Shown: one piece after another, positions 3,737-33,316 of the stretch | Numbering within the stretch: position 1 is the first letter of the stretch | Layout of the letters: every line of letters begins with the position of its first letter | Origin: a virus | Direction: 5' to 3' (one strand) | IMG/VR virus record: IMGVR_UViG_3300047496_000075 | Coordinates: 1-35,862 of that record | Length of the DNA stretch: 35,862 nt | Position numbers and translations under genes: made by a program | Notes under the pieces: generated by a model | The model's database searches: none | Told to the model about the DNA's origin: nothing | Seen by the model: the letters and a program-made list of their open reading frames with translations, nothing else

Positions 3737-5905
3737 TTAGTAATTTGGTAAATCATTTCTAAAGAACTGTGGCATATTTTGTTCGCCATAAATAGCCTCT
3801 CTCTTCATCTTATCAAAATCATTTGATGACATAGAATCTTTTGTCTTAGGTAAAGCTATACATAAGTATCTCATTGCGTCACTATTGCTAACAATTGCGC
3901 CATTTGCTAAAGAAAAATGTCCAGATATTGGCACATTAATACACCACACTTCATGCATTCCCTCTAGTTTTTCTATTTTTTCTACCATAAGATGCTTTGC
4001 AGTTTGGGTGGCAGAACTTTTGGGAATTATTTTTTCTTTGCAAAAGCATAGCTTGCTTTCCACAGAACAAACATTCTCCAATGATTCTAATTTGTTTTTC
4101 CCAACTTTTAATTCGGATTGCATGTTCACTGTGCCATCTTCTTCCAGCTTCACTTCCATGCCATTTAATAGCGGCCTCTCTTGCCTTTTGGCTGAATCCC
4201 TTGTTATTTGGTTTAGGCATTTTTCTATGCTCTCTGGCAGGAAAGCAAACAAGGTTTGAAAGCTTGTTGTTATCTGTGTTACTATCTTTGTGATGAATGT
4301 GGCAATCTGTCGGAATATTACCATAGGCTGAACTCCAGACTTCACGGTGTAACCTTGATCCGAAAGTTCTGTTATAGTATTTTGTTCCTCGATTTTTATA
4401 TATTTTGTTATTAAATGTTTGCGTTGAAACATGTTCGACGATAGGATCTGCGATCCGGATTTCAGGTTCTCTGCAGATATCCATCCTGACTCCGTCAAGA
4501 ATAAATGATCCGGCGTACATCTCACTTTTACACCATCTACAAAAACCACCTGAACTAAGTTCGCATTCTTTCTCATGCTCTTTGAGCCTATGCACTTTTC
4601 CCATCCATTCGCAGTAAGAATCTCTTCATTATCCCTAATACTTATTATAGGACGCATCCCGCTACGCGTCAATACCATTGTATCATGGGCAAAGCAAAAA
4701 TGGCTAAATTTATCGTGTAGTGGATGCGGCTTGTATATTTGTTTTTTGGAATCCCATTCTTGCCTATAGTTTTCAAGAGCCTTGATTAATGGCTTGCAAT
4801 TGTTTTTGTCTATCCAGACTTTATCTAGAGTGGATCTAACAGCCTCAATTCCGTCCACTATTGAAAGATCTGGCGCTATTGTGAAGTCTATGCCTAACTG
4901 CCTAGCTTTCTCAATCCTGGTCAGTCCTGATCCCCATTCTTGAACCTTTACGTCATGTGGTGCTATGAATTTACCATAAAGGTAAGGTTTATTGCGAATT
5001 ACTTGTACATAGTGCTCAAGTCCAACTTTAGAATTCTCATATGTATCAATTATTCTTATTGTTTGACCTATATTCTGAAAGAATATAAGACATGTCGAAT
5101 CTCTCACACCGATATCTATAGCCACATGAACTTTAAACGCTGACTCCCAGTTAACATCTCCAATTTGATTTTTAACTCGCATTTTATCGATATATTTAGC
5201 ATAATATGCACCTTCAACACCCATATCAAAACTGGTATAAAACTCCTGCATAGCAAAGTCTTCAGATATTAGACCCTCAGATATCTCTTTTTGTATTTGA
5301 TGTGGTGTTATATGATCTGTGTCTAGAATTGTTAATTTAGATGCGAACCAATTCTCTGGATTATTAATTGCTATTTGATAGAGCTCCCATAAATGATTCT
5401 TGCCACGAGGCGTTGAAATAAACAATGACCAACCATCATTGCCAAGTAGAATAGGGCGTAGGAATTTATATGCTTGTGGATCTTGTAAGGCATACTCAGA
5501 GAATATAATCCCAATTGGATTAGAACCCATAAGTGAATCTATGTTATCACTCCCGACCAATTGGATTAAAGATCCATTGGTTAATGTGATTTTCATTTGT
5601 TGACTATTAGATGATTGTATTAATTCTTGTGGAATGTAATCAAGAAATCTCACACCTTCAGTTGTAATGGAATCCCATATTACTTTGCGAGCTTGAGAAT
5701 ATTCTGGGAAGACATAATAATATACACCTATCTTGCGTAGAGCTTGCCTTAATAATAGATTAAAAGCACAAACGTCTTTGCCTGCTCTGCGGGGCCAAAT
5801 ACACAGTAGGCGCTTATATTTACCAGATTCTAATGCATGACAAAGTGGGAGCTGGTATGGCCTTGGATGGAAGCGATTAAGATGTATTTTTGTTTCAATC
5901 TTCAT
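3737..5905 (-). CDS. terL: Terminase large subunit, intein-containing precursor (722 aa; 451 aa after splicing)
   Basis: Walker A-like PRRAGKD and Walker B-like IGIIFSEY. The nuclease-domain motif HDKFSHF|SDAMRYL is restored when aa 404-674 are removed. Confidence 0.88.
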   Translation of the reverse strand: MKIETKIHLNRFHPRPYQLPLCHALESGKYKRLLCIWPRRAGKDVCAFNLLLRQALRKIGVYYYVFPEYSQARKVIWDSITTEGVRFLDYIPQELIQSSNSQQMKITLTNGSLIQLVGSDNIDSLMGSNPIGIIFSEYALQDPQAYKFLRPILLGNDGWSLFISTPRGKNHLWELYQIAINNPENWFASKLTILDTDHITPHQIQKEISEGLISEDFAMQEFYTSFDMGVEGAYYAKYIDKMRVKNQIGDVNWESAFKVHVAIDIGVRDSTCLIFFQNIGQTIRIIDTYENSKVGLEHYVQVIRNKPYLYGKFIAPHDVKVQEWGSGLTRIEKARQLGIDFTIAPDLSIVDGIEAVRSTLDKVWIDKNNCKPLIKALENYRQEWDSKKQIYKPHPLHDKFSHFCFAHDTMVLTRSGMRPIISIRDNEEILTANGWEKCIGSKSMRKNANLVQVVFVDGVKVRCTPDHLFLTESGWISAENLKSGSQILSSNMFQRKHLITKYIKIEEQNTITELSDQGYTVKSGVQPMVIFRQIATFITKIVTQITTSFQTLFAFLPESIEKCLNQITRDSAKRQERPLLNGMEVKLEEDGTVNMQSELKVGKNKLESLENVCSVESKLCFCKEKIIPKSSATQTAKHLMVEKIEKLEGMHEVWCINVPISGHFSLANGAIVSNSDAMRYLCIALPKTKDSMSSNDFDKMKREAIYGEQNMPQFFRNDLPNY
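3884..4696 (-). mobile_element. Intein in terL (Cys404..Asn674, +1 Ser675)
   Basis: Block A CFAHDTMVLT, block B CTPDHLFLT, blocks F/G VWCINVPISGHFSLANGAIVSN|S. Codon positions were checked against the nucleotides. Confidence 0.8.
3951..4604 (-). CDS. HNH homing endonuclease, nested inside the intein but in a different frame from terL
   Basis: LHREVW..GNIPTDCHIHHKDSNTDNNKLSNLVCFPAREH forms the H-N-H core. The C-terminus has CLFCGK...FCHPNC zinc-ribbon-like Cys pairs. The frame offset from terL is 2. The true start may be internal (M29). Confidence 0.72.
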   Translation of the reverse strand: MGKVHRLKEHEKECELSSGGFCRWCKSEMYAGSFILDGVRMDICREPEIRIADPIVEHVSTQTFNNKIYKNRGTKYYNRTFGSRLHREVWSSAYGNIPTDCHIHHKDSNTDNNKLSNLVCFPAREHRKMPKPNNKGFSQKAREAAIKWHGSEAGRRWHSEHAIRIKSWEKQIRIIGECLFCGKQAMLLQRKNNSQKFCHPNCKASYGRKNRKTRGNA

Positions 5906-6153
5906 TTATCATCGCATTTATAATGATTACAAAGTTTAATCTGATAAGTTATATCCCTAATATAATCTACAAAATCCGTATATTTTACATAAAGCATTGA
6001 TTTATGACAACCAATACACATCTTACTTAATAGATATTTTATTAATTCTTCTTGAAACTCAATCTCAGTCCTAAAATAGAATTCCTCGGGAAAGGCGCAG
6101 ATATCAAATCTATCCATATCAATAACTGGATGGATCTTGGTTTCAATCTTCAT
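5902..6153 (-). CDS. Hypothetical protein (83 aa) starting MKIETKIH, the same 8 aa as TerL
   Basis: Its stop overlaps the terL ATG (ATGA). The N-terminal 8 aa match TerL despite 3 synonymous differences. Confidence 0.5.
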   Translation of the reverse strand: MKIETKIHPVIDMDRFDICAFPEEFYFRTEIEFQEELIKYLLSKMCIGCHKSMLYVKYTDFVDYIRDITYQIKLCNHYKCDDK

Positions 6154-13160: not shown

Positions 13161-13337
13161 ATGGAAGATTTTAATGATATACTTCCCATAATTCCTCCTA
13201 AAATGCCTAAATGGCTAGAAGAATTATATGGACCCACCGAGTACTTAAAAGATATGAATAGATATTTACAACAAAAAGATAAAGAAGTGGAAAATAATGG
13301 AAACAATAGAACTAATGAAGATACAAGAACAATTTGA
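13161..13337 (+). CDS. Small hypothetical protein (58 aa)
   Basis: ATG immediately after the previous stop. Overlaps the erf start by 41 nt, so one of the two starts is uncertain. Confidence 0.3.
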   Translation: MEDFNDILPIIPPKMPKWLEELYGPTEYLKDMNRYLQQKDKEVENNGNNRTNEDTRTI

Positions 13338-14046
13338 TAAGATAATTAATCAAATGCAGTTGATTGTTAATGAGATAGATAGACAAAGGATAGCTATCAG
13401 GCCAAACAAATCCACTCATGTCAATGAACTTTATATGGCATTAGCGAAGGCACAATCTGAAATGCCGGCAGCTACATCAAGTAGTGAGAATCCATACTTT
13501 AAAAGTAGTTATGCTGATTTAACTGAGATTGTTGCATCTTCTAGGCCAGCACTAACAAAACACGGCCTAGCGGTGATTCAACAAATACAGTGCAATAATG
13601 AAGGCCAGAATGTATTATATACGATCCTGACGCATTCTAGTGGCCAATATATTGAATCTGCTATGAAGATAATCCCAGCTAAGACGGATATACAGTCTTT
13701 AGGGTCGCATATTACCTATTTAAGGCGTTATTGCTATGCTAGCTTAATCGGTGTAGTAGTAGCCAATGAAGATGATGATGGAGAGATTGCAGTAGCTAAT
13801 ACAAGGCAATTGGCTGCAAAGGGCACAGCACTAAACACTAAATACAATCCAACTGAAAATAAGATGGAAACTGTGACTAAAGAACAACTTGAAGAGTTGG
13901 AATATGAATTGTCAGAGTATCCCGATATTGCCAATCAAGTATTAGATGGATTAAAGATAATGAATCTGGCTGATATGCCTAAATCTAAATATCATGTATC
14001 GTTGACCAGGATAAGAGAGATTAAGTTAACCAGAAATGGAAAATAA
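13297..14046 (+). CDS. erf: ERF-family single-strand annealing recombinase
   Basis: NPYFKSSYADLTEIVASSRPALTKHGLAV...ILTHSSGQYIES...LGSHITYLRRYCYASLIGV matches the ERF core pattern. Confidence 0.78.
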   Translation: METIELMKIQEQFDKIINQMQLIVNEIDRQRIAIRPNKSTHVNELYMALAKAQSEMPAATSSSENPYFKSSYADLTEIVASSRPALTKHGLAVIQQIQCNNEGQNVLYTILTHSSGQYIESAMKIIPAKTDIQSLGSHITYLRRYCYASLIGVVVANEDDDGEIAVANTRQLAAKGTALNTKYNPTENKMETVTKEQLEELEYELSEYPDIANQVLDGLKIMNLADMPKSKYHVSLTRIREIKLTRNGK

Positions 14047-27383: not shown

Positions 27384-28433
27384 TTAAAAGTTACCACCAC
27401 CCCAACTCCAACCATTACCACTAGCACCCAATCCGGTACTTTCGGTATATATTGTAGCGACGCGTTCTTTTGTATATGTAACTATTGTTTTTCTTAAAAC
27501 TAGTGTTTCTTGTACTTTAAATTCCGGCATAATTAATTGCACGCTATCTAAATCCATTCTGTCTTCAAATATTTTTTTTGCGCAGCCATATGCAATGTAC
27601 TGCCAGAATTGCTCTAGATCTGGACTTTCCCCAGCCATTATCTCTGTAGGTCTAATATAAACTTCCAAATTAACCCTATATGACTGATCTGGAACGGGCC
27701 TTAAAATAAACTTATTATCGTAATAACATATTGCCTGAGGCAATGCTGCCACATATGGCACCGTTTCACTATTTATAGCCTGACCCGCAGCCGGAGCAGT
27801 AGGGAATGTAACTGTAAATTCTCCCGTAACATAATTTATAAAATTATTTAGATCAGGAGCGAAATTATCTGGCGCATCATAAGCTATTAAATTTCCTATA
27901 AGACTAGAAAGTGGCAAATCACGCATAGCTAAAGCATTATTATTGGCATCAATAGAGCTAAATAGTACTTGATTTTGTAATATTGGAGTATTAGTGATAT
28001 TTGGAAAGGGCGCATTAGCGTTGTTTACCGTTCCACTAAATTGAGTCGTGACCCCATCACCAGCAGTTCCTATGGAAGCAATATTATTAACCATTGGGTA
28101 TATACCAAAAAACTGTTGTCTGGATTGAGAAAACAATGCTGGATACCCTGCAATATATGCTGGTTCATGGACTGTGATATATTTGTTTTTAAAGTTATAA
28201 AATGGATCATCAACATTAGTTGTTGTAGTTTCATATACATCTATATTTGGTTGTGTGAAAAATGTAAATGTGTCCCTATAATCAAATAATCTTAAGTGTT
28301 CTGGGAAATCATAAAATACAAATGTATTTATATAGTTATTTAATTCAGCAGTGCTCAGTTGGGCCTCTGTAGGACTTCTTGTGAGCCTACGGACCTTGTT
28401 TTGTATTGCTGTTAATGTTGAATCTGGTGGCAT
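27384..28433 (-). CDS. Virion protein (349 aa), possibly adaptor/tail tubular A-like
   Basis: ORF track; the call rests on position only. Confidence 0.45.
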   Translation of the reverse strand: MPPDSTLTAIQNKVRRLTRSPTEAQLSTAELNNYINTFVFYDFPEHLRLFDYRDTFTFFTQPNIDVYETTTTNVDDPFYNFKNKYITVHEPAYIAGYPALFSQSRQQFFGIYPMVNNIASIGTAGDGVTTQFSGTVNNANAPFPNITNTPILQNQVLFSSIDANNNALAMRDLPLSSLIGNLIAYDAPDNFAPDLNNFINYVTGEFTVTFPTAPAAGQAINSETVPYVAALPQAICYYDNKFILRPVPDQSYRVNLEVYIRPTEIMAGESPDLEQFWQYIAYGCAKKIFEDRMDLDSVQLIMPEFKVQETLVLRKTIVTYTKERVATIYTESTGLGASGNGWSWGGGNF

Positions 28434-28472
28434 ACTAACTCCTATTTATTATATCATATTAGCGCTATAAAC

Positions 28473-28832
28473 CTACAGGGGCAACACATTTCTTGTCGCC
28501 TGATTTAATTGCGAATTTACTTCACCAACTGGCACTACTTGGGGTAATTGAGCCATCTCTCTATAGGTAGTAGGAGTAGTTAATGAATCGTAGTAAGTAG
28601 TATTGATATCTATATCAAAAGTAGTTGTGCCCGTAACAACAATTGTACCAACTTGCTGATTAATTTGTTGCATTCCATATCCTGGTGGTATATCTATTCT
28701 AACTATCAATCCCGACTTATAATTGTGAGCAAAACTAGTAGTAACGGATGCCGGGAAAGAACGAGTTATAGCTGTAACTATTCTCATCGCAGGCTGAAAT
28801 ACTGGTGATACAATTGCTGATATTGGGCACAT
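28473..28832 (-). CDS. Small virion protein carrying the shared H-N-x-x-x-G...V-x-(I/F)...G(M)..(L/I)N beta-barrel-like module
   Basis: FAHNYKSGLIVRIDIPPGYGMQQINQQVGTIVVTGTTTFDIDINTT. Confidence 0.55.
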   Translation of the reverse strand: MCPISAIVSPVFQPAMRIVTAITRSFPASVTTSFAHNYKSGLIVRIDIPPGYGMQQINQQVGTIVVTGTTTFDIDINTTYYDSLTTPTTYREMAQLPQVVPVGEVNSQLNQATRNVLPL

Positions 28833-28833
28833 A

Positions 28834-29253
28834 TTATACTCTAGGTAAATATTCTACTGTTAATAAACCAACATCCGGAGTTAGATCTTCGATATCAACG
28901 AATTCTAAGCTCTGAAAGCTGCAACGCCTTACTTTTTGACCTATTTTCATAGCAGGACGGCCATTCTCATCAACTGCATGAGTATGCACTGGAATGAAGC
29001 AATTCTTATTTAAGTGAACCGCAACACCAAGAGGCAATGTATAGATTTCTCCGTCCATAAGATCGAATCTTTCTACCGGATCTTCTTTCCACTTCTTGAA
29101 GACAAATGACATCATACCACCTGGAACCTCATGGAATATAAATTTACCACGCACCATTTCTCTATCTTTGTCTCTCAGATATTTATAGTTTGGCTTTGGC
29201 TTAGCTGTTGATACTGGTATTTGTGTTTCTTTTTGAGCTTTTTGTGCTTGCAT
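28834..29253 (-). CDS. Hypothetical virion-module protein (139 aa)
   Basis: ORF track. Confidence 0.55.
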   Translation of the reverse strand: MQAQKAQKETQIPVSTAKPKPNYKYLRDKDREMVRGKFIFHEVPGGMMSFVFKKWKEDPVERFDLMDGEIYTLPLGVAVHLNKNCFIPVHTHAVDENGRPAMKIGQKVRRCSFQSLEFVDIEDLTPDVGLLTVEYLPRV

Positions 29254-29271
29254 AGTTTTCCTTTATAAAGA

Positions 29272-29294
29272 GGGTGGGAGTAAACCCCCCACCC
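29272..29294 (-). terminator. GC-rich hairpin GGGTGGG...CCCACCC followed (minus strand) by UCUUUAU
   Basis: Read directly; lies between the 386-aa and 139-aa genes. Confidence 0.45.
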
Positions 29295-29303
29295 AATGGT
29301 TTA

Positions 29304-30464
29304 TTATAGACCGCCGTAAGTAGATTTACCCGCTACCCAATATATGGTATCTGCTACAGAACTAGTTGTAGTTCCGGCAGGTCCAATTATTGGTGTTCCA
29401 GATAATAATCCATTACCACCTGACCCTAAAATCATTCCTAAGTAACCAGCGTTAACAGTTGAATCAGATAAAATACCTGTGTTGGTACTAAATATCTGTA
29501 ATCCACCATTTAAAGGAACTTGAGGATTTAGATTTACTAAAGCATTGGCAGTATCTTCACCCACTGGATTAAAGTGAGGGAAAGAAGATGGCTGTTGTGC
29601 AATAGTAGGCCATGCAAATGCTGTGTAAGCACTTGTATCTATATTAATTACAAAGTTATAAGCATCAGTAACACTTAATACTGTCGCAGTTTGACCATTC
29701 AATTGAGTCATGCCGGTTACCGGAACTAAGTTAGGTATTTCAAACCTAATTAGTTGGCCAGCGCATAGATTATGTTCAACTGAAGTAGAAACTGTTGGAG
29801 TAGTTGCTTGTGTAACTTTAACTACATAACGACGACGAGGATAGAATAGAGGATTGGTATTAACAATTCTATAGAATCCAGCGCCACCTATTGCTCCAGG
29901 AGCAGTAGCTAATACGTTAGTAGCTGTTAATAAAGTAAAGCTAGTGTTAGCAGTAACTGCACCAACTACCATGTCAATACCATTAACATCTGTTTGGGCA
30001 GTATTACTCATACGAACAACTGTACCAACAGATATACCTGTAGTATCTCCAGTGCTAACAACAGGCTGTGTAGCATTAGTAGAAGCAGTTGTTGCAACAG
30101 CAGCTCCTAATATTGGTTGCGCACCTAGTGTTTGCCCGGATGGATCATAAAGCGTAAATCCACCGGATTGTAATGTATCAAATCCAACTGAAGGAGTGTT
30201 TGTGGCATTGCGATATTTTACAATACCGGTACCCACAGCCATTCCACGTTGCCAATAGAATTCAGCACCAATTGCGGCATTACCTGTGCCTTGGAATGTA
30301 GCGGTACTTGTACCTGCTTTTCCAAATTGAGTATAGTTGTACACCTTCAACCAATCAGCACCAGAAGGTATCTGAATGATTGTAGGAGCTGCAGCAGTTA
30401 TAGTTCCAGTAGCATTCACTAGATTAGCTAGAAAACTACCTTGTCCGATTATAGTTCCGTCCAT
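29304..30464 (-). CDS. Capsid-associated protein (386 aa) with two copies of the shared beta-barrel-like module
   Basis: Start moved to the ATG at 30464, which is preceded by an AGGAG overlapping the capsid stop. Modules are GISVGTVVRMSN..VNGIDMVVGAV and HNLCAGQLIRFEIPN..GMTQLNGQTATVLSV. Confidence 0.6.
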   Translation of the reverse strand: MDGTIIGQGSFLANLVNATGTITAAAPTIIQIPSGADWLKVYNYTQFGKAGTSTATFQGTGNAAIGAEFYWQRGMAVGTGIVKYRNATNTPSVGFDTLQSGGFTLYDPSGQTLGAQPILGAAVATTASTNATQPVVSTGDTTGISVGTVVRMSNTAQTDVNGIDMVVGAVTANTSFTLLTATNVLATAPGAIGGAGFYRIVNTNPLFYPRRRYVVKVTQATTPTVSTSVEHNLCAGQLIRFEIPNLVPVTGMTQLNGQTATVLSVTDAYNFVINIDTSAYTAFAWPTIAQQPSSFPHFNPVGEDTANALVNLNPQVPLNGGLQIFSTNTGILSDSTVNAGYLGMILGSGGNGLLSGTPIIGPAGTTTSSVADTIYWVAGKSTYGGL

Positions 30465-30472
30465 TGTATCTC

Positions 30473-30988
30473 CTAAGCTAATGTAGCGCGTAAATTGATT
30501 ACCCAAAGGTCATTAGTGATCCTTGGAACTTCCGCAAATTTATAACCAACTGAAGCATTTAATGCTAAAGGTCCGTCATATATTGGTGGTCTATATATAA
30601 AAGACGCACTGTATCCGTCTTGTTCTATACAAGCATAAGCTTCCATACCAACGCAGAATATATTGTATACTGTTGCGCCTAATGAAGAAGCATTTAAACT
30701 TGTTGAACCAATACTGGAAATCAAGAATCTCAAGTTGCCAATAGCACCCCATTCTGAACGCAAGGCATTCATAGGAGCTGGATATTGGTTCTTTTGAATG
30801 AATCCAGCAACGTTATCCAAGTTTCCGGTTAAGTTTGTTGAACATAATGCAAAATATGCATCACGAACAGGCGCTGTACCGAATTTATCTTCACCTTCAA
30901 TGTTATCCATGATTGTATATGCATTATTATTCAATAAAGCACGAACAACTGTATCAACATCGGTTCTGGTTATTTCTGTAGGAACGTC
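30473..30988 (-). CDS. Major capsid protein, exon 4 (DVPTEITRTD...RATLA*)
   Basis: In frame with exon 3 once intron 3 is removed. The C-terminal pattern resembles HK97-fold capsid proteins of the N4 gp56 type. Confidence 0.75.
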   Translation of the reverse strand, partial: DVPTEITRTDVDTVVRALLNNNAYTIMDNIEGEDKFGTAPVRDAYFALCSTNLTGNLDNVAGFIQKNQYPAPMNALRSEWGAIGNLRFLISSIGSTSLNASSLGATVYNIFCVGMEAYACIEQDGYSASFIYRPPIYDGPLALNASVGYKFAEVPRITNDLWVINLRATLA

Positions 30989-31002
30989 CAATCTATTACT
31001 TT

Positions 31003-31031
31003 TTGACTTAAATTTATATATTTGTTATCAT
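31003..31031 (+). promoter_or_regulatory. Sigma70-like promoter TTGACT-17 nt-TATCAT, ending 6 nt (31032..31037) before the LAGLIDADG ATG
   Basis: Read directly. There is no Shine-Dalgarno between the -10 and the ATG, which suggests a leaderless mRNA. Confidence 0.35.
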
Positions 31032-31037
31032 ATAATT

Positions 31038-31955
31038 ATGAAACAAATTACTACAAATACCGATCTTGCATATTTCGCTGGTTACATTGATGGAGATGGA
31101 TGTTTTTATATTGGTAAATATATCGATAAGAAAACCAAGCGCATTAAATATCAATCCAGACTTATTATATCTTCTACAAATAGAGATATTTTTAAGCATT
31201 TTAAAACTTTGTATGGTGGAATTATTAGAATGTCCGATAATAGGATTAAATATCCAGGACAAAAACCACAATATCAATTTATAATTTCTGGAAATTCTGC
31301 TAGTAAAATTACTGATAAAATAACAAATATTTTGCATGAAAAACGATTCCAGGCCGACTTTTTTGTAAAGTTTAGCAATACAAAAAGCAAATCCCAAAAA
31401 GATTATTTTATTGATCTTTTTCATGATATTAAAGAACATTTTTATGTTTCTAAAGATAGAATATATCTTATTAAGAACGGTTCTTATCGCATAACTCCCA
31501 AAGAAGAAGACTATGCCTATCTTGCTGGATTTATAGATGCTGAATGCTCTTTGGGTATACAACATTATAAACCGAAAAATAAACCCAATCAGGTTTATAA
31601 AATTTACCTGAAATGCAATAACACTCAATCTCCAATTTTTCATTGGCTTTACGAAAGATTCGGTGGTCAGTTGCAATTTATAAATCGAAACAATAAAAAT
31701 ATTAATCATAAAGACCAGATAATGTGGACCCTCAGCGGAAAAGCTCTTTCTCAAATACTTCCATACATTTTTAAATATATCCAATATAAAAAACCAGTTT
31801 GCGAACAACTCATGAAATTCGATGCCACTACTCTTAAAAATGGCGGCGCAAGACACACGGAAAAATTCCGGGAATCCTATGCTAAAATTATTAAAGAGCG
31901 AGAATTGATTATTCATGAAGTCCATCGTCTCAACAAAAAAGGTATTCCAATTTAA
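31038..31955 (+). CDS. Double-motif LAGLIDADG homing endonuclease (305 aa)
   Basis: LAYFAGYIDGDGCF and YAYLAGFIDAECSL motifs. The start is set at the first Met after the antisense capsid exon. Confidence 0.85.
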   Translation: MKQITTNTDLAYFAGYIDGDGCFYIGKYIDKKTKRIKYQSRLIISSTNRDIFKHFKTLYGGIIRMSDNRIKYPGQKPQYQFIISGNSASKITDKITNILHEKRFQADFFVKFSNTKSKSQKDYFIDLFHDIKEHFYVSKDRIYLIKNGSYRITPKEEDYAYLAGFIDAECSLGIQHYKPKNKPNQVYKIYLKCNNTQSPIFHWLYERFGGQLQFINRNNKNINHKDQIMWTLSGKALSQILPYIFKYIQYKKPVCEQLMKFDATTLKNGGARHTEKFRESYAKIIKERELIIHEVHRLNKKGIPI

Positions 31956-32138
31956 GCGGGTAGTCATTTCTGCTACCTCTCATACTTATCGCATGAGGCT
32001 CGACTATCGCATCCTCAATAGAGGTCTTCTTGTTTAGTCTGTCAGGCTGTATTTAAACTTGCCCCTTGTTGCCGGTTAGCTTATTGCCACTTCGGGTTCC
32101 AAGTCAATTAAAGAAGATTTTAAAACGGCAACATTTCT

Positions 32139-32417
32139 ACCGTTTACACCACCGGTGCAATTTATAAACGCAGCAGTAGCGGCCAACATGTCTCTTGTTA
32201 ACTGATCCTCTGTTTGTCTTAAACTTACACCTAATCTAGCCGCACATTCATTAAGAACAGGGTCTTGGTTTTGCAGGGTTACTTGTTCATTCAATTGAAC
32301 GTATGTCCCATAAAAACTAATTTTAGCATCAATATCAACAGCTGTTAAATTCTGAGCAGGAGGAGTTACACCAGTATTACCTAGAGGCACCATTGCTGTA
32401 TTTAACGGGTTATATCT
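32139..32417 (-). CDS. Major capsid protein, exon 3 (RYNPLNTAMVPLGNTGVTPP...CTGGVNG)
   Basis: 93 codons; boundaries fixed by the P1 helix and the terminal G of intron 2. Confidence 0.75.
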
Positions 32418-32810
32418 CATTTTTTGTTACTATTTGAAATTTATTCAAACGGGAATGCCTATTGCACATTCCTCACTGTGTTTCCACAATGTTCAGAGCA
32501 CCGCATCACTTTTCAGTGTTTTCTCGCTTGCTACGTTCAGGCTGATCGGGTATTAATTTAGTCCATGAATTATTTTTATATTTTTTCATCCAAATAGTAT
32601 CGCTATCAGTATTTATCCAAAATGCTGTATCTACTAAATCCAATTTATCATTTGAATTTGGATTTCTTTTGGATATTATCGTATTACTTGGAATATAATC
32701 ACATTTTTTATTAAACCAATTAATCATAATCTTGCCCCTTGTTGTCTACGACTTTACGTTTAGAGTTCCAAGTCTATCAGAGAAAATTTTAAATGCGCAG
32801 ATTTTTGTTT
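32418..32810 (-). mobile_element. Group I intron 2 of the capsid gene (393 nt)
   Basis: P1 pairs AAUGCGU (32817..32811) with GCGCAUU (32798..32792), ending in U.G. The intron ends ...AAAAUG. It shares 65-nt and 60-nt blocks identically with intron 1. Confidence 0.72.
32506..32727 (-). CDS. Intron 2 ORF (73 aa), no recognisable endonuclease motif
   Basis: Starts 7 nt after the AAGGGG of the intron core. The last 12 codons (QPERSKRENTEK) are encoded by conserved intron core sequence. Confidence 0.5.
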   Translation of the reverse strand: MINWFNKKCDYIPSNTIISKRNPNSNDKLDLVDTAFWINTDSDTIWMKKYKNNSWTKLIPDQPERSKRENTEK

Positions 32811-32927
32811 ACGCATTCTTAAAGTTGTTCCACCATTCCTTGGCATGTTTTTTTTCATAGCCGGAATTTTGTGGATCATATTAGGAACCGGGACTGATAA
32901 AAGCTTATAACTAAAGCTTTGTTGTAC
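32811..32927 (-). CDS. Major capsid protein, exon 2 (VQQSFSYKLL...GGTTLRMR)
   Basis: 39 codons found by manual translation between introns 1 and 2. Confidence 0.7.
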
Positions 32928-33280
32928 CATTCTGTTACTTTTGTGACCTATTTCTAGGCGAGGAAGCCTATTGCACTTCCCTCATTGCATTTCTACAATG
33001 TTCAGAGCACCGCATCACTTTTCAGTGTTTTCTCGCTTGCTACGTTCAGGCTGAAGAAAATCATTTAAAAATGCTTTATAATCAACTTGATATAATCCCT
33101 CACAGAATTCGCAAACAATATGATGATAATCATCTATATTAAATGCCTTTCCGTCTACAAAATATACCTTATCACATCGTTCACATTTATATTGATTCAT
33201 AATCTTGCCCCTTGTTGTCTACGACTTTACGTTTAGAGTTCCAAGTCTATCAGAGAAAATTTAACGCGCCCATACATTTT
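32928..33280 (-). mobile_element. Group I intron 1 of the capsid gene (353 nt)
   Basis: P1 pairs GCGCCU (33286..33281) with GGGCGC (33271..33266), ending in U.G. The intron ends ...AGAAUG. Confidence 0.7.
33015..33200 (-). CDS. Intron 1 ORF (61 aa), zinc-ribbon-like (CERC...CEFC)
   Basis: Same insertion point and same 12-aa C-terminal tail as the intron 2 ORF. Confidence 0.5.
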   Translation of the reverse strand: MNQYKCERCDKVYFVDGKAFNIDDYHHIVCEFCEGLYQVDYKAFLNDFLQPERSKRENTEK

Positions 33281-33316
33281 AGGCGCCGGAAGAGTCGAGG
33301 TTGTTGTAATTGCCAT
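33281..33316 (-). CDS. Major capsid protein, exon 1 (MAITTTSTLPAP)
   Basis: The ATG at 33316 is preceded by AAGGAG with a 6-nt spacer. Confidence 0.65.

Follow-up and report, generated by a model that had tools for sequence, protein, structure and literature searches.

The window analysed here is a 35,862-nucleotide (nt) stretch of DNA, positions 1 to 35,862 of the IMG/VR virus record IMGVR_UViG_3300047496_000075 and a 35.9-kb podovirus-like contig, and our subject is its major capsid gene, which lies on the minus strand between a scaffold-like open reading frame (ORF) on one side and tail genes on the other. The gene is divided into four exons by three inserts. The exons, and the junctions predicted after splicing, are as follows (aa, amino acids).

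33281 to 33316, minus strand: capsid exon 1 (MAITTTSTLPAP), 36 nt, with AAGGAG 7 nt 5' of the ATG
32811 to 32927, minus strand: capsid exon 2, aa 13-51, 117 nt
32139 to 32417, minus strand: capsid exon 3, aa 52-144, 279 nt
30473 to 30988, minus strand: capsid exon 4, aa 145-315 and stop, 516 nt
Predicted spliced junctions: CGGCGCCU joined to GUACAACA; GAAUGCGU joined to AGAUAUAA; AAACGGU joined to GACGUUCC

The four segments (36+117+279+516 nt, each divisible by 3) join in frame on the minus strand to a 948-nt ORF encoding 315 aa. An earlier reading of the window, made from the letters alone and called the sequence-only reading below, had proposed exactly these segments, and its coordinates prove right to the nucleotide; it had also assigned the joined protein to the N4-gp56 type of HK97-fold capsid proteins, and this assignment holds. 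The joined protein scores 31.1 bits against Pfam Phage_capsid_4 (PF25209), above the cut-off of 27, and its match to phrog_1357 ('major head protein') is at 1e-31. Relatives number 2576 among the 5.8 billion proteins searched, and the closest of them are uninterrupted proteins of 315-316 aa with 94% identity at 100% query coverage, several of the top ones bearing the JGI label 'N4-gp56 family major capsid protein'. The capsid is a member of the N4-gp56/Phage_capsid_4 family with the HK97 fold. The junctions were expected to be free of gaps in comparison with intron-less homologues, and they are: an alignment of 19 sequences has zero gaps at the junctions, and the residue pairs that meet there (P12 and V13, R51 and R52, G144 and D145) are invariant columns. 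The intron-less allele L121 (35 kb; coding sequence 4001-4951) aligns with the joined exons ungapped at 77% nucleotide identity, and the intron-less capsid genes of cultured phages are each recovered as a single tblastn piece against the joined protein.

The three inserts carry the parts of a group I intron throughout. They are laid out below, with scores from R2, a covariance model of the intron family that is introduced further on, and with the internal guide sequence abbreviated as IGS.

32928 to 33280, minus strand: intron 1, group I, 353 nt, R2 40.3 and 33.0 bits (two halves), terminal G at 32928; IGS GGGCGC 33271-33266; P10 UGUAU 33276-33272; P3 33259-33253/33034-33028; P4-P5-P6 33245-33207; P7 33043-33038/33009-33005; P8 33027-33016; P9 33000-32983; P9.1 32980-32962; P9.2 32958-32947
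32418 to 32810, minus strand: intron 2, group I, 393 nt, R2 48.8 and 29.3 bits (two halves), terminal G at 32418; IGS GCGCAUU 32798-32792; P10 AUCU 32802-32799; P3 32786-32780/32525-32519; P7 32534-32529/32500-32496; P8 32518-32507; P9 32491-32474; P9.1 32471-32453; P9.2 32449-32433
30989 to 32138, minus strand: intron 3, group I, 1150 nt, R2 137.4 bits (E 6e-28); uninterrupted P1-P9.1 core 32138-31959; P7 CAGACUA/UAGUCG; P8 CCUC-UAUU-GAGG; P9.2 formed by CUUAAAUU 31956-31949 with AAUUUAAG 31014-31007 around a loop of 932 nt; tail UCAAAAAGUAAUAGAUUG with the terminal G at 30989

The order of helices is the same in all three (P1, P10, P3 of 7 bp, P4, P5, P6, P7, P8, P9, P9.1, P9.2, tail), and every helix is intact in each intron. 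P2 is absent, P4 is CUUG/CAAG with GAA as J4/5, P5 is variable, P6 is GGGC/GCCU, and the P8 hairpin directly abuts P3', its loop reading UAUU in intron 3 and GAAA in the other two. A G-C pair in P7, the putative guanosine-binding site, is present in all three, accompanied by a bulged A in intron 3 and a bulged U in introns 1 and 2. The P1 pairings named by the sequence-only reading, each with its U·G, are all found: GCGCCU/GGGCGC, in which the 3' end of exon 1 supplies the 5' strand for intron 1, AAUGCGU/GCGCAUU for intron 2 and AAACGGU/GCCGUUU for intron 3. P1 runs for 6, 8 and 7 pairs in introns 1 to 3, with frequencies of 0.03, 0.006 and 0.036 when the first 30 intron nt are shuffled, and P10 pairs GUACA/UGUAU (5 pairs), AGAU/AUCU (4) and GACG/UGUU (4). 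The intron ends AGAAUG, AAAAUG and AGAUUG were also read correctly; they belong to a shared 3' tail, GUCAnAAAGUAAyAGAwUG, which includes the terminal G. As had been noticed, a core string is common to the three introns: CAACAAGGGGCAAG is found once in each intron and nowhere else in the window, against a shuffle expectation of 0.23, and none of 100 shuffles reaches three. The long-range P9.2 of intron 3 is kept by compensatory changes in the five relatives examined. The sequence-only reading had contained neither the helices P9, P9.1 and P9.2 nor the ORFs within the introns, which are described below.

Several smaller features of the introns were observed in passing. All three lie between codons and follow a third-position U, where the intron-less allele L121 has C, T and A, and many other members of the intron family also follow NNU codons (no statistics were computed); this location is as expected if introns insert where the U that P1 needs carries no coding cost. 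By eye, a motif recurs in extended P5 stems as an internal loop, GAAGUGG...CUAAC (in intron 3 P5 at 32095-32072), and the 9-nt loops of P9.1 recur as CAGAAAUGA, UGCAAUAGG or, in relatives, CCGAAGAGG (in the window at 31972-31964, 32975-32967 and 32466-32458). The P5 motif and the P9.1 loops may be tertiary contact partners.

To find relatives, IMG/VR was searched with a pattern of 24 fixed bases common to the three window introns (GACUUGGAAC...CAACAAGGGGCAAG). Alignment A2 comprises 35 ORF-less relatives from IMG/VR, with the window sequences excluded and P3/P7 written as a pseudoknot. In this alignment 98.0% of the cells are paired, compared with 82.2% in shuffles (0 of 500 reach the observed value) and 40-45% when the partners are slid by 1-3 columns. 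Variation on both sides is seen in 18 of the 30 pairs, among them pairs of the P3/P7 pseudoknot; it is complete in P3 (7 of 7) and in P8 (4 of 4). Compensatory cells number 156 against 35.6 expected; the P7 G-C pair is kept in 34 of the 35 relatives. Among 75 unique members, P3 is 95% paired versus 69% with shuffled partners (maximum 74.5% in 2000 shuffles) and P8 94% versus 61%; there are 35 distinct pairs of P3 strands, and the strands of the P7 variants (GACUA/UAGUC, GACUG/CAGUC and G(U)AGCA/UGCUC) are always matched. The three inserts have the P3-P9.2 group I fold with its P3/P7 pseudoknot.

The covariance model R2 was built from alignment A2 and contains no window sequence. In the window it recovers the full-length core of intron 3, and nothing beyond the three introns exceeds 10 bits; introns 1 and 2 are matched as two halves because ORFs in their P6 loops split the cores. 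R2 has no match on the intron-less allele L121 and 192 matches on 100 IMG/VR loci. It is thus through a family-specific model, together with covariation, that the group I identity proposed by the sequence-only reading is borne out. That reading had also named a failure of the Rfam model RF00028 on the minus strand as refuting, and RF00028 indeed has no match on the window introns, either at the gathering score, or over 3.2 kb with E<=10 allowed, or with the 231-nt core of intron 3 as the only target. We judge the test itself invalid, because the self-splicing T4 introns used as controls, td (40.3 bits) and nrdB (35.7 bits), also fall below the cut-off of 50, and because the relative L022 is recognised at 39.2 bits (E 1e-6) with P1 and P3-P9 placed exactly as by hand. 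The silence of RF00028 is a limit of the model's sensitivity and not a structural failure; a study of Bacillus phage introns likewise noted that introns of phages escape the models of Rfam and GISSD (PMC11878797). Moreover, R2 matches an intron in L018 whose RF00028 score, 53.3 bits, exceeds the cut-off, and the agreement of both models on this intron ties the family to the curated group I family. This L018 intron (5723-6002) is a second, different group I intron, which lies about 300 nt 3' of the family member and is the sole one in the tested loci above the RF00028 gathering score.

With the exons, splice sites and fold in hand, we consider it very probable that the capsid gene is interrupted by three group I introns which are removed from the late transcript to give the 315-aa protein. 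The steps of removal are taken by inference from the standard group I scheme. In each intron, the internal guide would pair with the last 6-8 exon nt to form P1, its U·G marking where the cut is made; an external guanosine, bound at the P7 G-C pair, would attack the 5' splice site; P10 would position the 3' exon; and the terminal G would then take the place of the external G, so that the exons are ligated. Splicing of the three introns is thus a prediction from their sequences, as is the homing of intron 3 discussed below.

Some observations weigh against this interpretation. The exact spliced protein is absent from a collection of 15 billion proteins, the three junction 30-mers are absent from IMG/VR, and the junction 3 24-mer is absent from metagenomes; the junction 2 24-mer has a match in the metagenome contig L124, which is not cDNA, however, but DNA from a related phage in which this site is unoccupied. 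P4 and P6 show no variation and are consistent with the fold only, because the pattern with which the relatives were found fixed those bases. In intron 3 P10 is weak, with G·U making up 2 of its 4 pairs, and introns 1 and 2 carry the minority P7 variant G(U)AGCA/UGCUC with its extra bulged U, found in 6 of the 75 members. RF00028 reaches E<=10 on none of the three introns, and R2 in turn is not significant on T4 td/nrdB (13.7 bits, E 0.67), so that the tie to characterised ribozymes runs via the RF00028 matches on relatives.

These points bear on an alternative that we regard as improbable, namely that the inserts are derived from group I introns and at least one of them no longer splices efficiently; the genome in the contig would in that case be decaying or defective, or would need a co-infecting helper or a protein cofactor for splicing. 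No transcript evidence for splicing was found, introns 1 and 2 combine the absence of an endonuclease with the rarer, additionally bulged P7, ribosomes on the small ORFs that cross the ribozyme core could disturb folding, and the silence of RF00028 extends to all three introns. Against it stand the helices, which are intact throughout, the differences between introns 1 and 2 in P9 and P9.1, which are compensatory, and the exons, which are undamaged and match invariant columns; the same P7 variant is present in other contigs with its strands matched. The phage population is also counted in two or more sequencing runs, and over 28038-32515 the window is matched at 100% identity by a Logan assembly of run ERR9963794, the independence of which from the window's source data is not established.

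This Logan contig ends at 32515, within the repeat that introns 1 and 2 have in common, so that its support extends to intron 3, exon 3 and a portion of intron 2 alone. Its end point, together with the identical blocks of 59-60 nt in introns 1 and 2, is what speaks for an assembly artefact, in which a chimeric join through the near-identical cores would leave fewer real introns than three. We hold such an artefact to be very unlikely: the guide of each intron fits its own flanking exon, each intron has a separate ORF, P9.1 and P9.2, exon 2 lies between introns 1 and 2 and is required for the conserved protein, and several family introns per capsid gene are also present in related contigs (e.g., L011, L015, L020 and L124). 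Hardly any credence is due to some other intervening element, for which nothing specific speaks and which only the negative Rfam result brings to mind, since the covarying P3/P7 pseudoknot is specific to group I, and each candidate was rejected: an intein because the frames meet stop codons soon after every junction, a group II intron for lack of an Rfam group II match and of a reverse transcriptase, translational bypass because inserts of 353-1150 nt far exceed known bypass gaps, and a gene-killing transposon on stop codons, size and fold.

Three spliced group I introns thus remain our favoured explanation, and the relationship between the first two is close. Introns 1 and 2 are identical at 59 of 59 nt from J1/3 to P6 (33204-33262 with 32731-32789, approximate) and at 59 of 60 nt from P6' to P9 (32996-33054 with 32487-32546, approximate). 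They differ in the guide sequence, ORF, P9.1 and P9.2, and the differences in the stems of P9 and P9.1 are compensatory (e.g., GGAAG/CUUCC versus GAAUG/CAUUC). The pattern suggests that the two are recent paralogues that arose by duplication, or that they are under ongoing gene conversion. These direct repeats are about 470 nt apart, and recombination between them could delete exon 2.

Neither intron 1 nor intron 2 has an endonuclease gene. What they hold in their P6 loops, and what the sequence-only reading had not listed, are two small ORFs unrelated to each other.

33015 to 33200, minus strand: 61-aa ORF within intron 1 (P6 loop), with two CxxC pairs (zinc-ribbon-like)
32506 to 32727, minus strand: 73-aa ORF within intron 2 (P6 loop), family not recognised

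The 61-aa ORF begins 3 nt past GGGGCAAG, and its frame continues over P6'-P7-P3'-P8; the 73-aa ORF has the same exit frame into the ribozyme core (..QPERSKRENTEK). Across the window and 26 related introns, P6-loop ORFs of 32-124 aa are likewise mutually unrelated and start a few nt after GGGGCAAG, about one third of them have CxxC pairs, and 27 of 28 enter the ribozyme core in one frame (..QPER[LS]..) and end in or just past the P8-P7' region. The AAGGGG within GGGGCAAG could be a ribosome-binding site for these ORFs, whose translation is a prediction.

Intron 3 is different in that its loop lies in P9.2 and is occupied by a gene read in the opposite direction, which was also missing from the sequence-only reading.

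31038 to 31955, plus strand: LAGLIDADG homing endonuclease gene, 305 aa, double motif (LAYFAGYIDGDG, YAYLAGFIDAEC), PF00961
31003 to 31031, plus strand: sigma-70-like promoter, TTGACT, 17 nt, TG-extended TATCAT, 6 nt, ATG

The 305-aa protein matches PF00961 (LAGLIDADG_1) in two stretches at 42.1 bits (cut-off 23.1) and has two motifs with acidic ends, GYIDGDG and GFIDAEC; we predict it to be a LAGLIDADG homing endonuclease. Full-length homologues with 42-59% identity occupy this same position of the capsid gene in L020, L037, L063, L081, L107, L110 and L120, and all are antisense. Weaker LAGLIDADG matches elsewhere in the intron family are mostly antisense as well, with L050 and L058 as exceptions. 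The promoter layout (TTGACy, 17-18 nt, TGnTAnnnT, 6-7 nt, ATG) recurs in 8 of 8 sequences. Because the -35 hexamer is complementary to the conserved tail of the intron, its conservation may stem from the ribozyme; the -10 element and the spacing are independent of the ribozyme. Judging from this layout, the endonuclease gene is probably transcribed autonomously by the host polymerase into a leaderless or near-leaderless mRNA. Intron 3 would then be mobile through homing via its endonuclease, which would be read opposite to the capsid gene from a host-type promoter of its own; such opposite transcription would make endonuclease expression independent of the late capsid message, which is heavily expressed, and would keep ribosomes off the ribozyme. 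A conserved antisense promoter beside the start codon is thus a candidate answer to how an endonuclease can be expressed without disturbing its host gene.

The intron family extends well beyond the window. Its search pattern is found in at least 120 IMG/VR contigs, and at 70 of the 120 loci listed the intron lies within a homologue of the window capsid gene, many of them with multiple copies; counting all capsid families, a capsid gene is the site at most of these loci. Among the matches listed, the capsid gene is in five exon pieces in L011 and in four in L015, L020, L033 and L116, and the distinct insertion positions in the N4-gp56-type capsid gene number about 20 or more by approximate mapping. 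Presence or absence of the introns is polymorphic among close relatives. In L124 (Ga0193697_1042385, 1-1136) the 24 nt of junction 2 are identical to the window and uninterrupted, which means that both sites filled in the window by introns 1 and 2 are unoccupied there, whereas family introns are present between aa 27 and 28 and between aa 88 and 89. Outside the window capsid family, phrog_283 and phrog_9953, two unrelated families of major head proteins, also contain members, as do an anaerobic ribonucleotide reductase gene (nrdD) and a tape-measure gene; such non-N4-gp56 loci include L051 1254-2873, L010, L086, L022 and L045, and several loci of this kind have three copies within 1.5 kb.

No publication describing the present intron family was found, including in the literature on introns of pelagiphage-like phages. 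As a tentative proposal, which in its joint form we hold to be possible rather than probable, these introns may constitute an undescribed, compact, Rfam-invisible group I lineage that specialises in phage capsid genes. The proposal would take in three capsid families, some 20 or more sites and up to four or more copies per gene, re-targeting of the guide via reverse splicing or ectopic homing, preferential landing after a wobble-position U, an antisense leaderless LAGLIDADG gene, and small ORFs whose translation enters the ribozyme core and which may gate splicing or capsid timing.

As for the remainder of the genome, no close cultured relative of the phage was found, the capsid having at most about 27% identity to entries in the phage collection. 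The best matches of the tail fibre, at about 30%, are to marine roseobacter, pelagibacter and OM43 phages, from which host and habitat might, at a weak guess, be inferred. An ERF-type recombinase gene is located at 13297-14046 on the plus strand. The terminase large subunit ORF (3737-5905, 722 aa) contains an apparent intein of about 271 aa (aa 404-674, window 3884-4696, minus strand), which starts with CFAHDT, ends with IVSN/S and is flanked by the terminase sequences SHF and SDAMRY; its score against Pfam Intein_splicing is 32.8 bits, slightly under the cut-off of 35.8. This intein and the three introns would make four self-splicing elements in 35.9 kb.

The interest of the capsid introns lies in a lineage that is invisible to standard models, saturates capsid genes and has a conserved antisense endonuclease cassette. 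Gene callers turn the window capsid gene into a 172-aa piece, a 114-aa piece and 'hypothetical' ORFs; such fragmented calls, together with the silence of Rfam, mean that capsid surveys, and annotations, of an abundant uncultured phage group miscount or miss the gene. Since a virion needs about 400 or more copies of capsid protein, efficient splicing is required of all three ribozymes within a single late transcript. In this respect the window capsid gene is a compact system, provided by nature, for the study of how several introns are spliced in coordination and of exon skipping, should it occur. The family as a whole offers one lineage at many alternative sites, both occupied and empty among close relatives, in which spread to new sites is testable.

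Among known systems, the introns of T4 td, nrdB and nrdD (sunY) are alike in the U·G of P1, the terminal G, ORFs in peripheral loops (the P6 loop in td) and the P9-P9.1-P9.2 extension. The core strings are close as well (GCCUAACGACUA...GAUAUAGUCUG in td, GCCUGAACGACUA...GCGAUAGUCUG in the present family), the RF00028 scores of td and of the family member L022 are similar (40.3 and 39.2 bits), and nrdD holds some members of the present family as it does T4 sunY. Unlike the T4 introns, those of the window have no helices between P3' and P8, have no P2 and interrupt a capsid gene; the endonuclease is an antisense LAGLIDADG protein, whereas T4 intron endonucleases are sense-strand GIY-YIG or HNH proteins. 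In the 1990 scheme of Michel and Westhof, the IA1/IA2 subgroup is said to have the extra helices P7.1 and P7.2 between P3' and P8. In the present family the final P3 pair that covaries and the start of P8 stand in adjacent columns (118 and 119), and this lack of intervening helices argues against a td-type IA subgroup.

The sequence-only reading had called three introns in one phage structural gene very unusual, and this was overstated. Three group I introns interrupt the single gene orf142 of Staphylococcus phage Twort, and polymerase and terminase genes of Bastillevirinae have two or three each (PMC11878797); compared with these, the window differs in host gene, which is the major capsid gene, and in phage type, its genome being podovirus-like and of 35.9 kb. 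In crAss-like phages of the Zeta group, PMC7886860 reports a capsid gene in five fragments; the introns there, in genomes of 145-192 kb, were recognised via protein domains, and the text consulted defines neither RNA fold, splice sites nor family. A parallel in layout is mycobacteriophage LittleE, for which PMC3706429 reports a group I-like intron in the major capsid gene, with splicing shown experimentally, and, as in intron 3 of the window, an endonuclease gene running leftward, opposite to the capsid gene. In contrast to the window, LittleE has a single intron, an HNH endonuclease and another capsid family, and the text consulted does not describe a conserved promoter or leaderless layout. 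Multi-intron phage genes and capsid introns are thus already known, and the window adds a further case, with three introns of one family in an N4-gp56-type capsid gene.

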